64,000 nt of DNA from positions 16 through 64,015 of the forward strand of contig CATLPG010000011.1 in the NCBI GenBank assembly GCA_950054195.1, written 5' to 3'. The notes beneath the pieces were generated by a model. The model saw only the letters and a program-made list of their open reading frames with translations, was not told where the DNA came from and made no database searches. The stretch is from an uncultured Saccharospirillaceae bacterium (GTDB lineage Bacteria; Bacteroidota; Bacteroidia; Flavobacteriales_D; CAJJDF01). Of this stretch, positions 55,225 through 61,172 are shown one piece after another; the first letter of the stretch is position 1; every line of letters begins with the position of its first letter. The position numbers and the translations under genes were made by a program.

Positions 55225-56883
55225 ATGAAAAAATTATTTTACTCTCTTATTTTAATACTATTTATTTTTTCAGCTTATAGTCAAGAAAACTATCTGAAAG
55301 GAGAAGTTTTAGTTATGCTTAACAAGGATGTTAAAGCAACAACTTTTATAGAAAGTTTGAATCAAGAAACTTCATACGATTTTTCTTTAGTAGAAAACCT
55401 ATCTAAAAATTTAAATATTGCTAGAATGTCATTTGATGTAGCTTATTCAAATGATGAAGTATTAGATTATTTATTTAAACAGGAAGAAGTTATAAATGTT
55501 CAAAATAATCATACAAATGTAGTGTTGCGAGATAGCTGTATAAACGACAGTTTATTTGCTTCCAATCAATGGGCATTGGAAAATACAGGGCAAACAGGCG
55601 GAACAATCGATGCTGATATTGATGCTTGTGAAGCTTGGAGTTTTTATGCACCTGACGATCAACCAGATTCTACAGCTTTAGGAGATGAGATTGTAGTAGC
55701 AGTGATTGATGCAGGATTTGACTTAAATCATTCGGAACTTAACTTTTACACAAACAATCAAGAAGTACCAGGCGATAGTATAGATAATGACGGGAATGGT
55801 TTTATAGATGACGTAAGTGGATGGAATTTTTATTCTGGCTCAGGTAATGTTACACCTGTTGCTCATGGTATGCATGTAAGTGGTATTGTTGGAGCAAAAG
55901 CAAATAATGGTACAGGGGTTTCAGGAGTTGCTCCAGGTGTTAAAATTTTACCTGTTCAAGGATCTTCAACACTTGAGTCTATTGTTATTCAATCGTACGA
56001 TTATGTACTCACGATGAGAAAGTTATATGATTCCACCGATGGAGCAAAAGGAGCATATGTTGTTGTTACTAATTCTTCCTTTGGTGTTGATTTTGCTTTT
56101 GAAAGTGATGTCCCTCTTTGGTGTGCATTTTATGATAGCTTGGGGAAAGCAGGGATACTAAATGTTGGAGCTACAGCTAATGCTAATAGAGATGTTGATT
56201 ATTTAGGAGACATTCCCTCTCAATGTTCTAGTGATTATTTGATTATGGCTACTACTACAAACAATAATGATATGAAAACAGCAGGAGCAGCCTTTGGTGA
56301 CACTACCATTGACATTGGAGCTCCAGGAGTTGCTATTTTGTCAACGGGAGTTTCTAATGGTTTTTATACTTCATCTGGCACATCAATGGCAGCACCATTT
56401 GTTGCTGGTGCAATTTCTTTCATGTATGCAGCAGCTTGCGAAAATTTCATTAATAGCTATCAGCTTAATCCAGACAGTGTAGCATTAGCTGTTAAAGATT
56501 TTATTTTGAATAATGGTGACCTCAATACCTCCTTAGAAGGAATTACCTCTTCAGAATCTAGATTAAATGTATACGAATCAGTTAATGCATTGATGAGTAG
56601 TGGTTATTGTGTATTTACAGATATAGATGAAACTAAGCATAAATTCAGTTTAAAGTTATATCCCAACCCAAATCAAGGACAGTTTACTTTAGAATTAACT
56701 TCTCTTGATCAAGAAAGTAAATATGTAACGATTTACAATAGTTTAGGAGAGGTTGTGTATAATGAAAGTACATCTAACAAGTCAATATCTATAGATTTAC
56801 AGCAGAAACCATCAGGTGTTTATTTTTTATCTGTACAAAATAATCAAGGTAAAATATATTCTACTACCTTTATAGTAGAATGA
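55225..56883 (+). CDS. Subtilisin-like S8 serine protease with T9SS type A CTD
   Basis: Triad VAVIDAG, HGMHVSG, SGTSMAAP; CTD LYPNPNQG...IYNSLGE...PSGVYFL. Confidence 0.93.
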   Translation: MKKLFYSLILILFIFSAYSQENYLKGEVLVMLNKDVKATTFIESLNQETSYDFSLVENLSKNLNIARMSFDVAYSNDEVLDYLFKQEEVINVQNNHTNVVLRDSCINDSLFASNQWALENTGQTGGTIDADIDACEAWSFYAPDDQPDSTALGDEIVVAVIDAGFDLNHSELNFYTNNQEVPGDSIDNDGNGFIDDVSGWNFYSGSGNVTPVAHGMHVSGIVGAKANNGTGVSGVAPGVKILPVQGSSTLESIVIQSYDYVLTMRKLYDSTDGAKGAYVVVTNSSFGVDFAFESDVPLWCAFYDSLGKAGILNVGATANANRDVDYLGDIPSQCSSDYLIMATTTNNNDMKTAGAAFGDTTIDIGAPGVAILSTGVSNGFYTSSGTSMAAPFVAGAISFMYAAACENFINSYQLNPDSVALAVKDFILNNGDLNTSLEGITSSESRLNVYESVNALMSSGYCVFTDIDETKHKFSLKLYPNPNQGQFTLELTSLDQESKYVTIYNSLGEVVYNESTSNKSISIDLQQKPSGVYFLSVQNNQGKIYSTTFIVE

Positions 56884-57260
56884 TTAAACTTGTTCAATTA
56901 GGAATAGCTAGTTTATTAATCATTTTTTTATTTAATCTATTCACTCCCAGTGGTATTTGGTTGAATTTTAAAATGAATCAGTCATTCATTGCTAAAAATC
57001 TTTGTGTAAAAAAAGAGATTAAAGAAAACACATGTAAAGGAAAGTGTCATCTTAAAAAAGAGCTAGAAAAAGTTCAAACACAAGAAAATCATCAAGATAA
57101 AGAGCCTTCTTTCCCAGTAAATACGTTAGATCATTTATTTAATCAAACGGTTGAAAAGTTTAACTTTTTAATTGTGAGAAGAATAAATTCTCACCACAAT
57201 AAGACCTTTAACATACTTAAAGGTTTTACCCAAATCACAAATCCACCACCGCAAGTTTAA
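56880..57260 (+). CDS. Small Cys-rich leader protein ending in polyproline (putative metal-sensing uORF)
   Basis: N-terminal hydrophobic helix; IAKNLC-x9-CKGKCHL; C-terminal NPPPQV; first gene of the MbnP cluster. Confidence 0.7.
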   Translation: MIKLVQLGIASLLIIFLFNLFTPSGIWLNFKMNQSFIAKNLCVKKEIKENTCKGKCHLKKELEKVQTQENHQDKEPSFPVNTLDHLFNQTVEKFNFLIVRRINSHHNKTFNILKGFTQITNPPPQV

Positions 57261-57311
57261 CTGTTTATAGAAAAGCTGTAGAAGCAGTATAAATAAAAAT
57301 TAACAGTTAAA
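57256..57311 (+). promoter_or_regulatory. Intergenic stem-loop joining the uORF stop codon to the downstream initiation region
   Basis: Perfect 10-bp inverted repeat TTTAACTGTT (57256-57265) / AACAGTTAAA (57302-57311); no U tract; next ATG at 57322. Confidence 0.55.
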
Positions 57312-57321
57312 AAATCATAAA

Positions 57322-58272
57322 ATGAGCAACTCTATTTTGGTTGTGTTCGTTTGTATGTGTGTAGAGCTAATGGCTTGTGATATATGCAATATGGACATCA
57401 ACCTGATACCAGAGAATAATAAAAATACACTTTCGCTTACTTACAGAAGTAGATTTACTTCGGGAAGGTACAATGCATTTGGTACAATGATGGAAAGTCC
57501 GTACCGTATGTTTATGCACACAGGGCCACAGTCAAGAAATCATTACAATAAAACGGTGAATGAAGTATTTGAAGTGTATACATTAAGTGGAAATTATTTC
57601 GTTTCTGAGCGTTTAAATATAAATGTCCGTTTGCCATTCTCTCATAATGTACAGTATATGGATAACCAAAAAACGGTGGAAACACATGGTGTTGGTGATC
57701 TAATTTTATTGGGTAATTATGAAATAATCAATACCAAAAGAATAGAAAATTCTCTAACTTCTTTTCGTTGGACAATAGGAGGAGGTGTTAAACTTCCTCT
57801 AGGAAAATGGAACCATAAAAAGGAAGAAGAATTTCTTGATATTGATTTACAAAACGGAACAGGTAGCACCGATGCAATACTTACTTCTGAATATACGTTG
57901 AGGTATAATAAAGTAGGAATGTTAGTTTCAACTAATGTTAAATTCAACACAACAAATAGCAGAGGCTATAAGTATGGTAATTCATGGAATCAGCAACTAA
58001 CATTATTTTACTTACAAAAAATAGGTAAAATAAACGTAATGCCTCATTTGGCTTTGTATCATGAAATAGCAAGGCAAGATGTTGAAAATAAGCAGCTATT
58101 GTTACAAAGTGGAGGGGAGGTAATGCTTGCTTCTGGTGGACTAAATTTGTATTTTAATAAAATAAGAATTGATTTTACCTACCAACACGGTGTAAGAAAT
58201 AATTTAAACGGAATCACACAATTAAACACAACACATCGATGGTTAACAGGACTTGTTTACTATCTAAATTAA
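57322..58272 (+). CDS. Outer-membrane beta-barrel transporter with N-terminal CxxC (putative metal channel)
   Basis: Signal then ACDICN; GVGDL, GGGVKLPLG, LQNGTGSTD, YKYGN; Met/His-rich loop; terminal GLVYYLN. Confidence 0.75.
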   Translation: MSNSILVVFVCMCVELMACDICNMDINLIPENNKNTLSLTYRSRFTSGRYNAFGTMMESPYRMFMHTGPQSRNHYNKTVNEVFEVYTLSGNYFVSERLNINVRLPFSHNVQYMDNQKTVETHGVGDLILLGNYEIINTKRIENSLTSFRWTIGGGVKLPLGKWNHKKEEEFLDIDLQNGTGSTDAILTSEYTLRYNKVGMLVSTNVKFNTTNSRGYKYGNSWNQQLTLFYLQKIGKINVMPHLALYHEIARQDVENKQLLLQSGGEVMLASGGLNLYFNKIRIDFTYQHGVRNNLNGITQLNTTHRWLTGLVYYLN

Positions 58273-58327: not shown

Positions 58328-59095
58328 ATGAAAACAATAAATAAATTTTTAGGAATAGCACTTTTACTTAGTTTGTTTATTATAGGGTGTAAAAAAGAAA
58401 AAGCAGATGATCCTAAGGATGAACATGATCATCACCATTCTGATGGAACAGGAACAGTTTCATTGGCAACTACTTTTAAGGTAGGAACAAATCCTTATTC
58501 AACAGATTCAACTTACACGAATGGATTTGGAGATGATTATAAATTTACATTTGTTCGTATCTATCTATCAGGATTTAATTTAACGGATCATGATTCTGTT
58601 GAGCAAGCATTACCAAATCAGTACCTATTGGTTGATCCTCAAACAAGTTCTTATGGCTTAGGAACAATAGATGCTGGTCATTACCATGATTTCAACTTAA
58701 CGATAGGTATTGATAGTGCTACTAACCATTCAGATCCTAATACATATCCTATTGAAAGCCCATTATATCCACAATCACCAGCTATGCATTGGTCTTGGAA
58801 CTCTGGATATATCTTTTACAAGTTAGAAGGAGTTGCTGATACTAACAATGATGGTACATTCGAAACTACTTTTTCTTATCATATAGGAATGGATGCGCTT
58901 AAACGTCAAGTATCTAAAACTATTCATAAAGACGTGATGAAAGATCAAGATAACCCAATTCAAGTAACTATTGATTTAGGAAAATTCTTGACAAATGTTG
59001 ATTTTGAAACCGAGAGAACTACGCATACAATGAATGATATGCCTTTGGCTACAAAAATTGCAGATAACGCTGTTACAGCTATTGAGATACAATAA
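58328..59095 (+). CDS. mbnP: MbnP-family copper-binding lipoprotein
   Basis: Lipobox IIGC, His tract HDHHH, IGIDSATNH, MHWSWNSGYIF (WxW), YHIG; adjacent di-heme enzymes. Confidence 0.85.
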   Translation: MKTINKFLGIALLLSLFIIGCKKEKADDPKDEHDHHHSDGTGTVSLATTFKVGTNPYSTDSTYTNGFGDDYKFTFVRIYLSGFNLTDHDSVEQALPNQYLLVDPQTSSYGLGTIDAGHYHDFNLTIGIDSATNHSDPNTYPIESPLYPQSPAMHWSWNSGYIFYKLEGVADTNNDGTFETTFSYHIGMDALKRQVSKTIHKDVMKDQDNPIQVTIDLGKFLTNVDFETERTTHTMNDMPLATKIADNAVTAIEIQ

Positions 59096-59101
59096 TTAAA
59101 A

Positions 59102-60115
59102 ATGTCACACAGGAATAAATATGTATTATTTTGTATTCTTGTGTGGCTATTTTCTTGTTCACAACCGAAGAAAGATGTAAAAGATAAGCCACATACATTT
59201 CACATCCCTGTAGGTTTTAAGCATCCAGATCTTTTAGGTGTTGATAGCATAACTGATTTTAAAGTTAAGATTGGAAAGCGTATGTTTTTTGATAAAAACC
59301 TATCAAGTACAAAAGAGCTTTCGTGTGCATCTTGTCATATTCCTAGTCAGGCTTTTTCGGATACGATAGCCATTAGTGATGGTGTTTTGGGTAGAAAGGG
59401 ATTTAGAAATGCTCCTAGTTTGGCAAATGTAGCCTACCAACCAGTTATGTTTGTTGATGGAGGATCTCCAACGATAGAAATGCAAGTTGTAGCACCAATT
59501 ACTGATTCGAACGAAATGAATATGGACTATTTAGAAGCTATTAACTATTTGGCAAATGATTCTATTTATCGTTCATGGAGTATGGTTGCTTATGGGAGAG
59601 TTCCTGATGCTTATGTGTTTACGCGTTCGATAGCAGCATATCAACGGACATTACTGTCGGGAGATGCTAAGTATGATCAAGTAGTGCAAGGGGATGCTTC
59701 CTTTACAGAAGAAGAGCAGAGAGGTTATGACCTGTTTTTCAGTGATAAAACGAATTGTAGTAGTTGCCATTCGGGCAATTTATTTACGAATTACACGTAT
59801 CAAAATATAGGGTTGTACACTACTTATAGTGATTCAGGCAGAATGAGAATCACATTAAATGAAGAAGATAGGGGAAAGTTTAAAGTTCCATCACTTAGAA
59901 ACGTAGCATTAACATATCCATATATGCATGATGGATCAAAGGCAACTTTAGAGGAAGTAGTTTCGTTTTTTGATAGAGGAGGAAAAGATCATCCCAACAA
60001 AAGTGAATTAATTAAACCACTGCATTTAACAGAACAAGAACAAAAAGATATTGTATCATTTTTGCATACATTAACAGATAAAAAATTTATAGAAAGACAT
60101 GCGGTTAATTATTAA
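59102..60115 (+). CDS. Di-heme cytochrome c peroxidase/MauG/MbnH-like lipoprotein (paralog 1)
   Basis: Lipobox LFSC; CASCH and CSSCH; RNAPSL, FKVPSLRNV, PYMHDG; MFVDGG at the usual FWDGR position. Confidence 0.88.
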   Translation: MSHRNKYVLFCILVWLFSCSQPKKDVKDKPHTFHIPVGFKHPDLLGVDSITDFKVKIGKRMFFDKNLSSTKELSCASCHIPSQAFSDTIAISDGVLGRKGFRNAPSLANVAYQPVMFVDGGSPTIEMQVVAPITDSNEMNMDYLEAINYLANDSIYRSWSMVAYGRVPDAYVFTRSIAAYQRTLLSGDAKYDQVVQGDASFTEEEQRGYDLFFSDKTNCSSCHSGNLFTNYTYQNIGLYTTYSDSGRMRITLNEEDRGKFKVPSLRNVALTYPYMHDGSKATLEEVVSFFDRGGKDHPNKSELIKPLHLTEQEQKDIVSFLHTLTDKKFIERHAVNY

Positions 60116-61172
60116 CATATTAGTAGCACTGTTGGCTGTTTTTATGTTTAGTTGTAAAGAAAAAGAAGACAACATTACTCAAACAACTAAACAACCTCAA
60201 GGCTATACACCAACGCCTTATCAGCTAAACTTGCCACAGCATTTTCCACAGATGCCTTTACCAATGGATAATCCATTAACAGAAGAAGGAGTGGAGCTTG
60301 GAAGGTATTTATTCTACGAAAAGAAATTGTCAGGAGATAATACCATGTCATGTGGTTCTTGTCATAAGCCAGATGCTGGATTTTCTGATGATCGACAATT
60401 TAGTATAGGAATTGACGGAATGCAAGGTAATAGACAAGCAATGCCTATTGTAAATTTAGGGTATGCACAAAAATTCTTTTGGGACGGTCGATCTAACTCA
60501 TTAACCGAACAGGCTTTGGAACCGGTTAGAGATCCTATTGAATTTCATGAAAATTGGGTAAATGCAGTAAGTGAGTTGCAAGCGGACCCATTGTATCCGC
60601 CTATGTTTGAGAAGGCTTTTGGAACTTCTACGATAGATTCAATTTTAGTGGCAAAGGCAATAGCTCAATTCGAATTAACGATGATTTCTGGAAATTCTAA
60701 ATTTGATCAATGGATTAAGAGGGAAGTAGCTTTTACAACGGATGAGTTGAATGGATATAATCTTTTTAACGCTTTAGGAGGAGGAGATTGTTTACACTGT
60801 CATGGCGGTACATTAACAACAGATCATAGTTTTCAAAATAATGGTTTAGATGAGTTTCTTACAGATTTAGGTTTGGGAGCAGTAACTGGAGATCCGTCCG
60901 ATAATGGGAAGTTTAAAGTCCCATCATTAAGAAATATAGCTTTAACAGCACCGTATATGCATGATGGAAGATTTAACACGTTGGACGAAGTGATTGATTT
61001 TTACAGCACGGGAGTTCACGCTAATTCACCTAACATTAGTCCAAACATGGAGTTTGCTGCTGATGGAGGGGTTAACTTAACTCCTCAAGAAAAGGTTGAG
61101 TTAAAAGCCTTCTTGTTAACGTTAACCGATACAAGTTTTATCAATAATCCAGACTTTCAAGATCCGCATTAA
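60099..61172 (+). CDS. Di-heme cytochrome c peroxidase/MauG/MbnH-like lipoprotein (paralog 2)
   Basis: Lipobox MFSC; DNPLT..GVELGR.LFY; CGSCH and CLHCH; FFWDGR; FKVPSLRNI; PYMHDGR. Confidence 0.9.
   Translation: MRLIINILVALLAVFMFSCKEKEDNITQTTKQPQGYTPTPYQLNLPQHFPQMPLPMDNPLTEEGVELGRYLFYEKKLSGDNTMSCGSCHKPDAGFSDDRQFSIGIDGMQGNRQAMPIVNLGYAQKFFWDGRSNSLTEQALEPVRDPIEFHENWVNAVSELQADPLYPPMFEKAFGTSTIDSILVAKAIAQFELTMISGNSKFDQWIKREVAFTTDELNGYNLFNALGGGDCLHCHGGTLTTDHSFQNNGLDEFLTDLGLGAVTGDPSDNGKFKVPSLRNIALTAPYMHDGRFNTLDEVIDFYSTGVHANSPNISPNMEFAADGGVNLTPQEKVELKAFLLTLTDTSFINNPDFQDPH

Follow-up and report, generated by a model that had tools for sequence, protein, structure and literature searches.

A candidate metal-sensing leader gene from a large Bacteroidota family, with a recurrent RNA helix between its stop codon and the next start

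The leader ORF and its locus

The window analyzed here, a 64,000-nucleotide stretch of contig CATLPG010000011.1 from an uncultured bacterium of the Bacteroidota, carries on its forward strand a small open reading frame (ORF) of 126 amino acids (aa) at 56880-57260, hereafter the leader, which precedes genes for a putative outer-membrane barrel, an MbnP-family protein and two di-haem peroxidases. An earlier sequence-only reading had proposed this ORF as a metal-sensing, ribosome-stalling leader, describing a hydrophobic N-terminus, a C-x9-CxxxCH motif and a stop codon within a perfect 10-bp inverted repeat, and direct reading confirmed these coordinates and motifs. The hydrophobic N-terminus begins MIKLVQLGIASLLIIFLFNLF; the Cys codons (C42, 57003-05; C52; C56, 57045-47) together with H57 (57048-50) give C-x9-C-x3-C-H; and the protein ends T-N-P122-P123-P124-Q125-V126-stop, with the PPP codons at 57243-57251 and TAA at 57258-57260. 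The PPP, first described as C-terminal, is thus present near the end but not at the extreme C-terminus: it lies three codons ahead of the stop and is followed by Q125 and V126. The features of the leader, all on the + strand, are as follows.

56880-57260, +, leader ORF, 126 aa, taken from the ORF list; member of a Bacteroidota family that has no model
56886-56969, +, hydrophobic helix at the N-terminus (about residues 3-30) that resembles a signal anchor or signal peptide, with presumed topology (AlphaFold2, hydropathy)
57003-57050, +, Cys motif C42-x9-C52-x-G54-x-C56-H57, proposed metal site; the most conserved segment in the family
57078-57227, +, linker, residues 67-116, with little-conserved sequence but near-constant length (entropy; coil in AlphaFold2)
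57243-57251, +, P122-P123-P124, codons CCA CCA CCG, proposed arrest site (sequence; family-wide Pro-Pro)
57256-57268, +, 5′ arm of the helix, including the stop codon 57258-57260 (inverted repeat, duplex test)
57299-57311, +, 3′ arm of the helix, -23 to -11 of the next ATG, within an A-rich initiation region (inverted repeat)

The start codon of the leader overlaps the TGA of an upstream gene for an S8 peptidase sorted by the type IX secretion system (ATGA, 56880-56883). The -7 consensus of Bacteroidota promoters is TAnnTTTG; this motif was not found on the + strand of 56400-57400, a sigma-70-type promoter scan at the window locus returned fewer matches than in shuffled sequences, and no terminator was detected there. 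Since the two reading frames touch and the scans revealed no promoter motif, the description of the leader as the head of an MbnP/MbnH operon stands only in part: MbnP and MauG/MbnH-like genes do lie downstream, but a barrel-like gene intervenes and the operon head is not established for the window. At 43 other loci, the upstream gap of family leaders has a median of 113 nucleotides (nt).

A large Bacteroidota family with a shared Cys motif and Pro-Pro tail

A phmmer search of 1.84 billion cluster representatives with the leader protein (E<=1e-3) recovered 2240 representatives of 50% identity clusters, nearly all 105-145 aa long, and a 13-member profile detected members in 127 of the 401 Bacteroidota genomes sampled and in 64 of 180 genera, often in two to three copies. 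Pfam-A and NCBIfam gave no match for the window leader and no consistent match across 137 members, and sequence-profile comparison with solved structures reached a best E of 0.24. In the ESM Atlas, the 30 nearest clusters were unnamed Bacteroidota hypothetical proteins; the nearest named entries (score 0.89), which serve as leads only, were DUF6769 (as "DUF2946 domain-containing"), DUF6660 and CzcI. Judged from these searches, the leader belongs to a sizeable Bacteroidota family for which neither Pfam nor NCBIfam has a model. Three candidate identities were set aside: a weak match to the DAN cystine-knot family in 19 of 137 members, which arises through CxGxC and was judged spurious; a CopL match in a single member of the 137 at 0.0035, likewise judged spurious; and the family name "HYC_CC_PP", which was found in no paper and had no NCBIfam match.

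Motif conservation was surveyed in 161 sequences, namely 160 phmmer hits and the window leader. The motif C-x9-C-x-G-x-C occurs in all 161, and a downstream Pro-Pro (PP) in 153, several of the other eight being truncated; at the level of genomic loci, PP is present in 43 of 44. Among the 153 sequences that carry both, the residue after the third Cys is H in 100, Q in 29 and Y in 16, the third Cys precedes PP by 62-72 residues in 152 (mode 67), and a tail of 1-11 residues separates PP from the stop in 150, so conservation of the terminal prolines, which had been proposed as a check on the leader hypothesis, is borne out. The residue pair preceding PP is F-H in 59 sequences, F-R in 17 and F-Q in 9, and the x-P-P-P form found in the window occurs in at least 20.

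This conservation is unevenly distributed along the protein: column entropy is 1.68 bits for the Cys domain, against 3.45 for the linker, 2.25 for the tail and 3.54 for the positions past PP. AlphaFold2, supplied with a 137-sequence alignment, predicted helices at residues 2-32, 34-46 and 55-71 with a predicted local distance difference test score (pLDDT) of 82-94 (88-94 for helix 2-32) and coil at residues 72-120 with a pLDDT of about 60. A hydrophobic helix is present in 137 of 137 members (median of the best 19-residue hydropathy window, 2.06), and positive-inside counts lean weakly toward an N-in/C-out orientation (67 versus 30, with 40 ties).

Such a product could also be a small, stable metalloprotein that is anchored in the membrane and takes part in uptake, perhaps handling copper together with the barrel, a receptor or MbnP, in which case the RNA helix described below would be ordinary translational coupling and the PP tail would sense nothing, serving the protein or slowing termination. 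The conservation and confident modeling of the N-terminal 70 residues fit this explanation, as do the multiple paralogues found within single genomes, every copy with a transporter unit to itself, but a near-random coil linker of about 50 residues and fixed length is hard to explain for a folded partner. We consider this explanation unlikely.

Metal-acquisition genes follow the leaders

Gene context was scored by a Pfam scan of the three genes downstream of each leader in 40 loci from 40 genomes of many families plus the window, giving 44 family ORFs. The next gene is co-oriented with the leader in 44 of 44 loci, and metal-acquisition genes occur among the next three in 33 of 44, in agreement with the expectation that the family lies ahead of metal-transport genes. 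The downstream classes comprise TonB-dependent receptors (18), MbnP (11, usually with a MauG-like enzyme), and YtkA-like, SCO1, PCuAC, YHS, PepSY_TM and MetA-type barrel proteins; in the remaining 11 loci, the leader is followed by unnamed exported proteins, by a cation-efflux gene, by COX1 or by a contig end. Gaps between leader and next gene range from 31 to 339 nt, with a median of about 100 nt (40 loci with a curated downstream start). On domain assignment, the genes after the leaders are those of outer-membrane and periplasmic metal acquisition, mostly of copper type.

In the window, the leader is followed by four genes.

57322-58272, +, 316-aa exported protein of an outer-membrane-barrel family, proposed first controlled gene, with mature N-terminus C-D-I-C (BLASTP)
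58328-59095, +, MbnP-family protein (PF20243, 1.2e-34, 120 bits, above cut-off; NCBIfam TIGR04052 under its cut-off)
59102-60115, +, MauG/MbnH-like di-haem peroxidase (PF03150, 6.1e-46, 157 bits, above cut-off)
60099-61172, +, second MauG/MbnH-like di-haem peroxidase (PF03150, 1.2e-54, 186 bits, above cut-off)

The 316-aa barrel-like protein itself has no Pfam match; BLASTP aligned it at 7e-22 to a 315-aa protein matching PF13557 and at 6e-27 to the equivalent gene in a same-order genome, and by these similarities it is related to MetA-type outer-membrane barrels. One same-order genome mirrors the gene order of the window, with leader, barrel (N-terminus A-C-D-I-C), MbnP and MbnP in succession. 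An MbnP-domain protein adjoining a MauG-like di-haem enzyme is present in the window, and the NCBIfam MbnP/MbnH equivalog models are the best matches, under their curated cut-offs; the MbnH family model TIGR04039 scores 248 bits against the first peroxidase, below its cut-off of 363, and 259 bits against the second, also below. Barrel-like proteins of about 300-350 aa often follow leaders (57322-58272 and loci L031, L045, L051, L052 and L063) and carry A-C-D-x-C-(G-C) directly past the signal peptide, so that a putative outer-membrane protein bears a conserved group of Cys residues at its mature N-terminus. Most of the barrel-like proteins downstream of leaders are missed by the PF13557 model.

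Pairing between the leader stop and the next start

The stop codon of the window leader lies in an inverted repeat formed by 57256-57265 (TTTAACTGTT) and 57302-57311 (AACAGTTAAA), an exact 10-bp match with two G-C pairs, which a repeat search lengthens to a helix of 13 nt at 92% identity (57256-57268 / 57299-57311). The 3′ arm at 57302-57311 occupies positions -20 to -11 of the ATG at 57322, an A-rich stretch without a Shine-Dalgarno-like run. Initiation in Bacteroidota is described as independent of the Shine-Dalgarno sequence and tuned by mRNA structure, so that a helix formed at the start region could plausibly act as a switch.

Folding of the whole 111-nt region is unremarkable (minimum free energy -16.6, z -1.5; 17 of 200 shuffles equal). 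The duplex between stop region and start region reaches -9.7 kcal/mol, a value attained by 0 of 200 shuffles (p 0.005), and in a within-locus control about 4 of 62 other 39-nt windows pair equally well (p 0.079). Taken alone, the window helix is only moderately unusual; it gains weight because similar pairing recurs in relatives.

Close relatives of the window locus were absent from genome contigs, and a single 32%-identical locus was found in metagenome contigs. A DNA relative of 95-99% identity (run X7) shows nine differences over 57116-57632, and none of the eight listed differences falls within 57205-57461, a segment of 257 nt that runs from the PP codons through the helix and the intergenic region into the next gene, of which it takes in the first 46 codons; this difference-free segment, on one contig at depth 4.4, is at most a weak hint of constraint. 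Contigs from an RNA-library run cover 56500-56881 and 56907-57057, and a further contig of 4114 nt starts at 57396; none spans the leader 3′ end and intergenic region, so they are uninformative on transcription units.

Across the phylum sample, we tested pairing between the leader 3′ end (-24 to +14 of the stop) and the next-gene start region (-30 to +9) at 40 of the 44 junctions, the four others being dropped for a 1205-nt gap (one), an unclear next gene (two) or a leader without a PP tail (one); for 14 of these junctions, the downstream start was repositioned by visual inspection, with signal peptides as the guide. Pairing was stronger than in shuffles (p<0.05) at 16 of 40 loci, or 11 of 40 with a 24-nt window, and a positional scan of the 5′ window placed the energy minimum at -12 to 0 from the stop. 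The within-locus window control was passed at p<=0.05 by 10 of 40 loci (binomial 2e-5). When start regions were exchanged among loci, the cognate one ranked first among the 40 in 13 of 40 cases, and the observed mean was reached in 0 of 20,000 permutations (p 5e-5). Control same-strand junctions from the same loci gave 3 of 118 positives, compared with 10 of 33 for family junctions whose genes were called in the same crude manner. In the phylum sample, about 25-40% of loci have a helix over the stop.

Because the window helix has no close relatives, covariation was sought in another clade, f32, which supplied 13 further loci from two genera of one family with tails of the form S-P-P-P-[QKR]-x-stop and gaps of 50-247 nt. 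A helix is present in 11 of these 13 loci, always with the stop codon inside, and its arms covary (GGUUAAC/GUUAACC, UCUUAGU/ACUAAGA, AGUUAGU/UCUAACU). Cognate pairs average -10.9 kcal/mol versus -6.3 for non-cognate pairs (permutation p 2e-5). The covarying hairpin over the stop that the sequence-only reading had suggested looking for is therefore found, broadly at 16 of 40 loci and, with changing complementary arms, in 11 of 13 loci of one clade.

At loci L037, L038, L046 and L035, the F-H codons UUUCAU pair with AUGAAA (Met-Lys) of the next gene. In some classes other than Bacteroidia (L050, L058, L062 and L064), the partner of the Pro codons CCUCC is a GGAGG-like run ahead of the following start. 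In loci paired in either way, the arrest codons themselves would be the masking strand.

These results also bear on chance as an explanation, under which hairpin and prolines would be coincidental in an A+T-rich genome and the ORF would have no regulatory tie to the genes downstream. The z of -1.5 for the whole region, the two G-C pairs of the helix and the within-locus p of 0.079 are compatible with coincidence, but the family-wide PP tail, its position, the gene context and the recurrent covarying pairing make it very improbable.

A modeled ribosome footprint on the PP codons raised the unpaired probability of 57302-57311 from 0.17 to 0.73. By geometry, a ribosome with P123 in the P site would reach only the first 4-6 pairs, and a terminating ribosome would cover the whole 5′ arm. 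As a terminating ribosome would open the helix, the pairing shows coupling between translation of the leader end and the next initiation, and does not in itself show arrest. In this geometric model, a terminating ribosome alone would likewise melt the 5′ arm if the product were a metalloprotein coupled in the ordinary way, and the 24 of 40 loci without a significant helix also suit that explanation.

Comparison with known arrest-based copper leaders

The closest functional precedents are two proteobacterial upstream ORFs (uORFs). CruR of Bordetella pertussis (Bp2923; DUF2946, PF11162) has an export signal, a CXXC motif and an RAPP sequence three residues from its end, with 45 +/- 2 residues between CXXC and RAPP; it opens a receptor operon repressed by copper, in which copper relieves arrest and Rho then terminates between leader and receptor. 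The arrest was shown in vitro in later work. The CruR paper lists TonB-dependent transporter, PepSY_TM, Sco, PCuAC and MbnPH-like genes after DUF2946 ORFs, with long intergenic distances, and cites B. pertussis proteomics with peptides of two downstream proteins and none of the CruR product. CutF of Rhodobacter capsulatus, also a DUF2946 protein, carries a C-terminal PPP that is reported to stall the ribosome upon copper binding by the exported Cys motif, and the proposed stall lets the ribosome melt a stem-loop over the ribosome-binding site of the next gene. Small proteins with RAPP or RGPP occur before TonB and copper genes, and in a survey the copper-related ones were lacking in Bacteroidota; examples of the RAPP class are SecM, ApdA, ApdP and small C-terminal RAPP proteins (Fujiwara et al. 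2025).

By sequence, the present family stands apart from DUF2946. The window leader has no PF11162 match at E<=0.1, none of 137 family members matches at E<=0.01, no match was found in its own genome, and hhalign of the family against six Bacteroidota DUF2946-like sequences, all with CxxC and R-[A/G]-P-P tails, gave a probability of 2%, in line with the earlier suggestion of an analogue rather than a DUF2946 member. DUF2946-like small proteins do occur in a few Bacteroidota (L071, L073, L076, L078 and L080), where they have a His-rich stretch, CxxC and R-[A/G]-P-P 3-5 residues before the stop; PF11162 exceeds its cut-off in 4 of 401 Bacteroidota genomes, and the text of the CruR paper does not list the phylum.

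The likeness to CruR is one of architecture. Both are first genes of copper-acquisition operons, 120-145 aa long, with an N-terminal export signal (in the present family a putative one), a Cys motif and PP close to the stop, about three residues before it in CruR and 1-11 in most family members, and both have a fixed Cys-to-PP spacing, a long intergenic region and a shared repertoire of downstream genes. The details differ: the family motif is C-x9-C-x-G-x-C rather than CXXC, the tail is F-[HRQ]-P-P or x-P-P-P rather than R-A-P-P, the spacing is about 67 (62-72) rather than the 45 +/-1-2 of DUF2946, and CruR acts through Rho-dependent termination whereas the present family keeps a helix onto the next start region. 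That the CruR product went unseen in B. pertussis proteomics also counts against a stable metalloprotein, an explanation that does not exclude a leader function.

The precedent of CruR, which controls uptake operons through Rho-dependent termination, raises the alternative that arrest at PP shields the transcript from Rho or an attenuator and that the helix is secondary. Long intergenic regions, with a median of about 100 nt, would suit transcriptional action, and the loci without a helix need another device. The window intergenic region, however, contains no intrinsic terminator, the window has 33% G+C (no search was made for a C-rich rut-like stretch), and the specific covarying pairing of stop to start points to control of initiation. 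We regard transcriptional action as improbable.

The likeness to CutF lies in the RNA switch and the prolines. CutF and the window leader both have a C-terminal PPP, followed in the latter likewise by two residues, and in both a helix lies over the start of the downstream gene, placed so that a ribosome halted at the actual or proposed arrest site could reach it; sensing by a Cys motif during co-translational export is proposed for the present family as well. The CXXXC spacing of CutF is matched by C52-x3-C56 of the window, in surrounding sequence that is unlike, and no detectable sequence homology connects CutF with the family. CutF controls a detoxifying multicopper oxidase and is copper-induced, whereas the present family precedes uptake-type genes, and a response of opposite sign to that of CutF is therefore expected. 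The stem of CutF, moreover, covers a Shine-Dalgarno sequence, whereas Bacteroidota do without initiation led by one.

With the RAPP class, the family shares small secretory or membrane proteins, PP near the C-terminus and a position upstream of transport or metal genes, but it has an aromatic or aliphatic residue in place of the essential Arg, and His, Arg, Gln or Pro in place of Ala/Gly. An "HPP" tail occurs 0 times in either of two RAPP arrest-peptide papers, and R-[A/G]-P-P 0 times among 2716 crude ORFs of at least 70 aa in the genome of the window. PPP occurs 46 times in this genome, four of them within 10 residues of a C-terminus, all in small transmembrane (TM) ORFs. No published description of the leader family was found in a literature search made mostly without subscription journals, which agrees, within that coverage, with the earlier statement that the phylum has no characterized example.

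DUF6660, an unrelated family with a similar tail and RNA pairing

A second family, DUF6660 (PF20365), one of the leads from the ESM Atlas, has the same kind of C-terminal tail. Its member in the genome of the window lies 68 nt ahead of a CusA/CzcA resistance-nodulation-division efflux gene and after a Fur-like regulator.

Contig C9, L084:1375-1695, -, DUF6660 protein (PF20365), 107 aa, with a TM helix, a Cys/His-rich stretch and the tail ...VWHPPSIG-stop

DUF6660 is present in 66 of 401 sampled genomes, and its tail follows [W/L/F]-[Q/H/E]-P-P-x(1-3)-stop in 31 of 31 loci. The next gene is an ACR_tran (CusA/CzcA-type) pump in 28 of these 31, a TonB receptor in two and a P-type ATPase in one. 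Stop-to-start pairing was detected at 21 of 30 loci against shuffles and at 11 of 30 by the positional control, many of the loci being close kin, with helices of 12-16 bp that differ in sequence. A literature search made mostly without subscription journals yielded no description of DUF6660.

Like the present family, DUF6660 combines a TM helix, a Cys/His-rich segment, a PP tail and stop-to-start pairing. The Cys pattern is another one, and 0 of 137 leader-family members match PF20365 at E<=0.01. DUF6660 precedes efflux pumps while the present family precedes uptake genes, a contrast that mirrors that of CruR and CutF. Since two unrelated families share tail and RNA device, DUF6660 provides the strongest indirect argument for the PP tail as an arrest element; PP at an equal distance from the stop, with the same RNA pairing, in an unrelated protein also speaks against the view that the leader is simply a metalloprotein of the uptake machinery. 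These parallels tentatively suggest, at somewhat less than even odds, a Bacteroidota-specific class of arrest motifs, [aromatic/aliphatic]-[H/Q/R/P]-P-P near the stop, shared by at least two unrelated families, in which arrest and stop codons pair with the next start. Such a class would couple a transmembrane ligand signal directly to translation initiation, independently of a Shine-Dalgarno sequence.

Interpretation and significance

We favor, with a probability of roughly 0.6, the reading that the leader is a cis-acting sensory gene, a Bacteroidota counterpart of the CruR/CutF uORFs drawn from an unrelated family. The interpretation first proposed from the letters passes every comparative test run and, at the level of sequence comparison, is supported; from it we infer that the ribosome stalls, that the leader binds metal, how it is oriented during export and in which direction metal acts. 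The Cys motif of the nascent exported chain would be outside the ribosome, and probably outside the membrane, once the ribosome reaches the prolines, and the duration of the pause at the PP and stop codons would depend on whether this motif holds metal. While it pauses, the ribosome would hold the helix open and allow the next gene to initiate; upon its departure the helix would re-form and close the start region. Because the controlled genes are uptake genes, the logic of CruR would be expected, with arrest and expression when copper is scarce and release when copper is bound.

Several observations weigh against this reading. F-H-P-P is not a described arrest motif, the surveys having treated RAPP-like motifs; the window leader abuts its upstream gene, and no promoter was detected; and its membrane topology is weakly predicted. 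Its first 70 residues show good conservation and a confident fold, as one expects for a protein that has its own function. The window helix consists of 10-13 A-U-rich pairs, with p values of 0.079 within the locus and 0.10 / 0.05 across loci, and the modeled start codon sits in a second local hairpin that an upstream ribosome leaves closed (unpaired probability 0.11 to 0.04). Plain termination at the stop would open the helix too, arrest being unnecessary for the pairing. In the wider sample, 24 of 40 loci have no significant helix, and 14 of 40 downstream start codons were curated by eye.

To our knowledge, nascent-chain copper sensing as in CruR and CutF is a recent discovery confined to Proteobacteria and DUF2946 proteins. 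If the proposed role of the leader is correct, the principle arose independently, or diverged past recognition, in a second major phylum, with another metal motif, another arrest motif and an RNA switch fit for ribosomes that ignore Shine-Dalgarno sequences. What would be new is the CruR/CutF logic in proteins of another sequence family that have a new tail motif, and in a phylum without a characterized example. Thousands of proteins now listed as hypothetical, in 2240 clusters and in about one in three of the Bacteroidota genomes sampled, would gain a function, and Pfam DUF6660 would gain one of the same kind. The proposed role would also explain why the RAPP-based survey found copper-related leader ORFs lacking in Bacteroidota. 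The many natural variants of helix and linker would, moreover, lend themselves to the study of coupling among arrest, export and initiation.

Further PPP-tailed ORFs in the same genome

Three further small TM ORFs in the genome of the window end in x-P-P-P plus 2-4 residues, and none has a Pfam match.

Contig C104, L115:4414-4869, -, PPP-tailed small TM ORF
Contig C3, L116:3794-4129, -, PPP-tailed small TM ORF
Contig C16, L117:3587-3970, -, PPP-tailed small TM ORF

One of the three lies 1 nt ahead of a gene for an unnamed 310-aa protein. Another is His-rich and precedes genes for a TonB-dependent receptor, a His-rich lipoprotein and HupE/UreJ, and the third is acidic and lies 56 nt ahead of a SulP-family transporter gene; the His-rich and acidic ORFs may be further carriers of a motif of the class outlined above.

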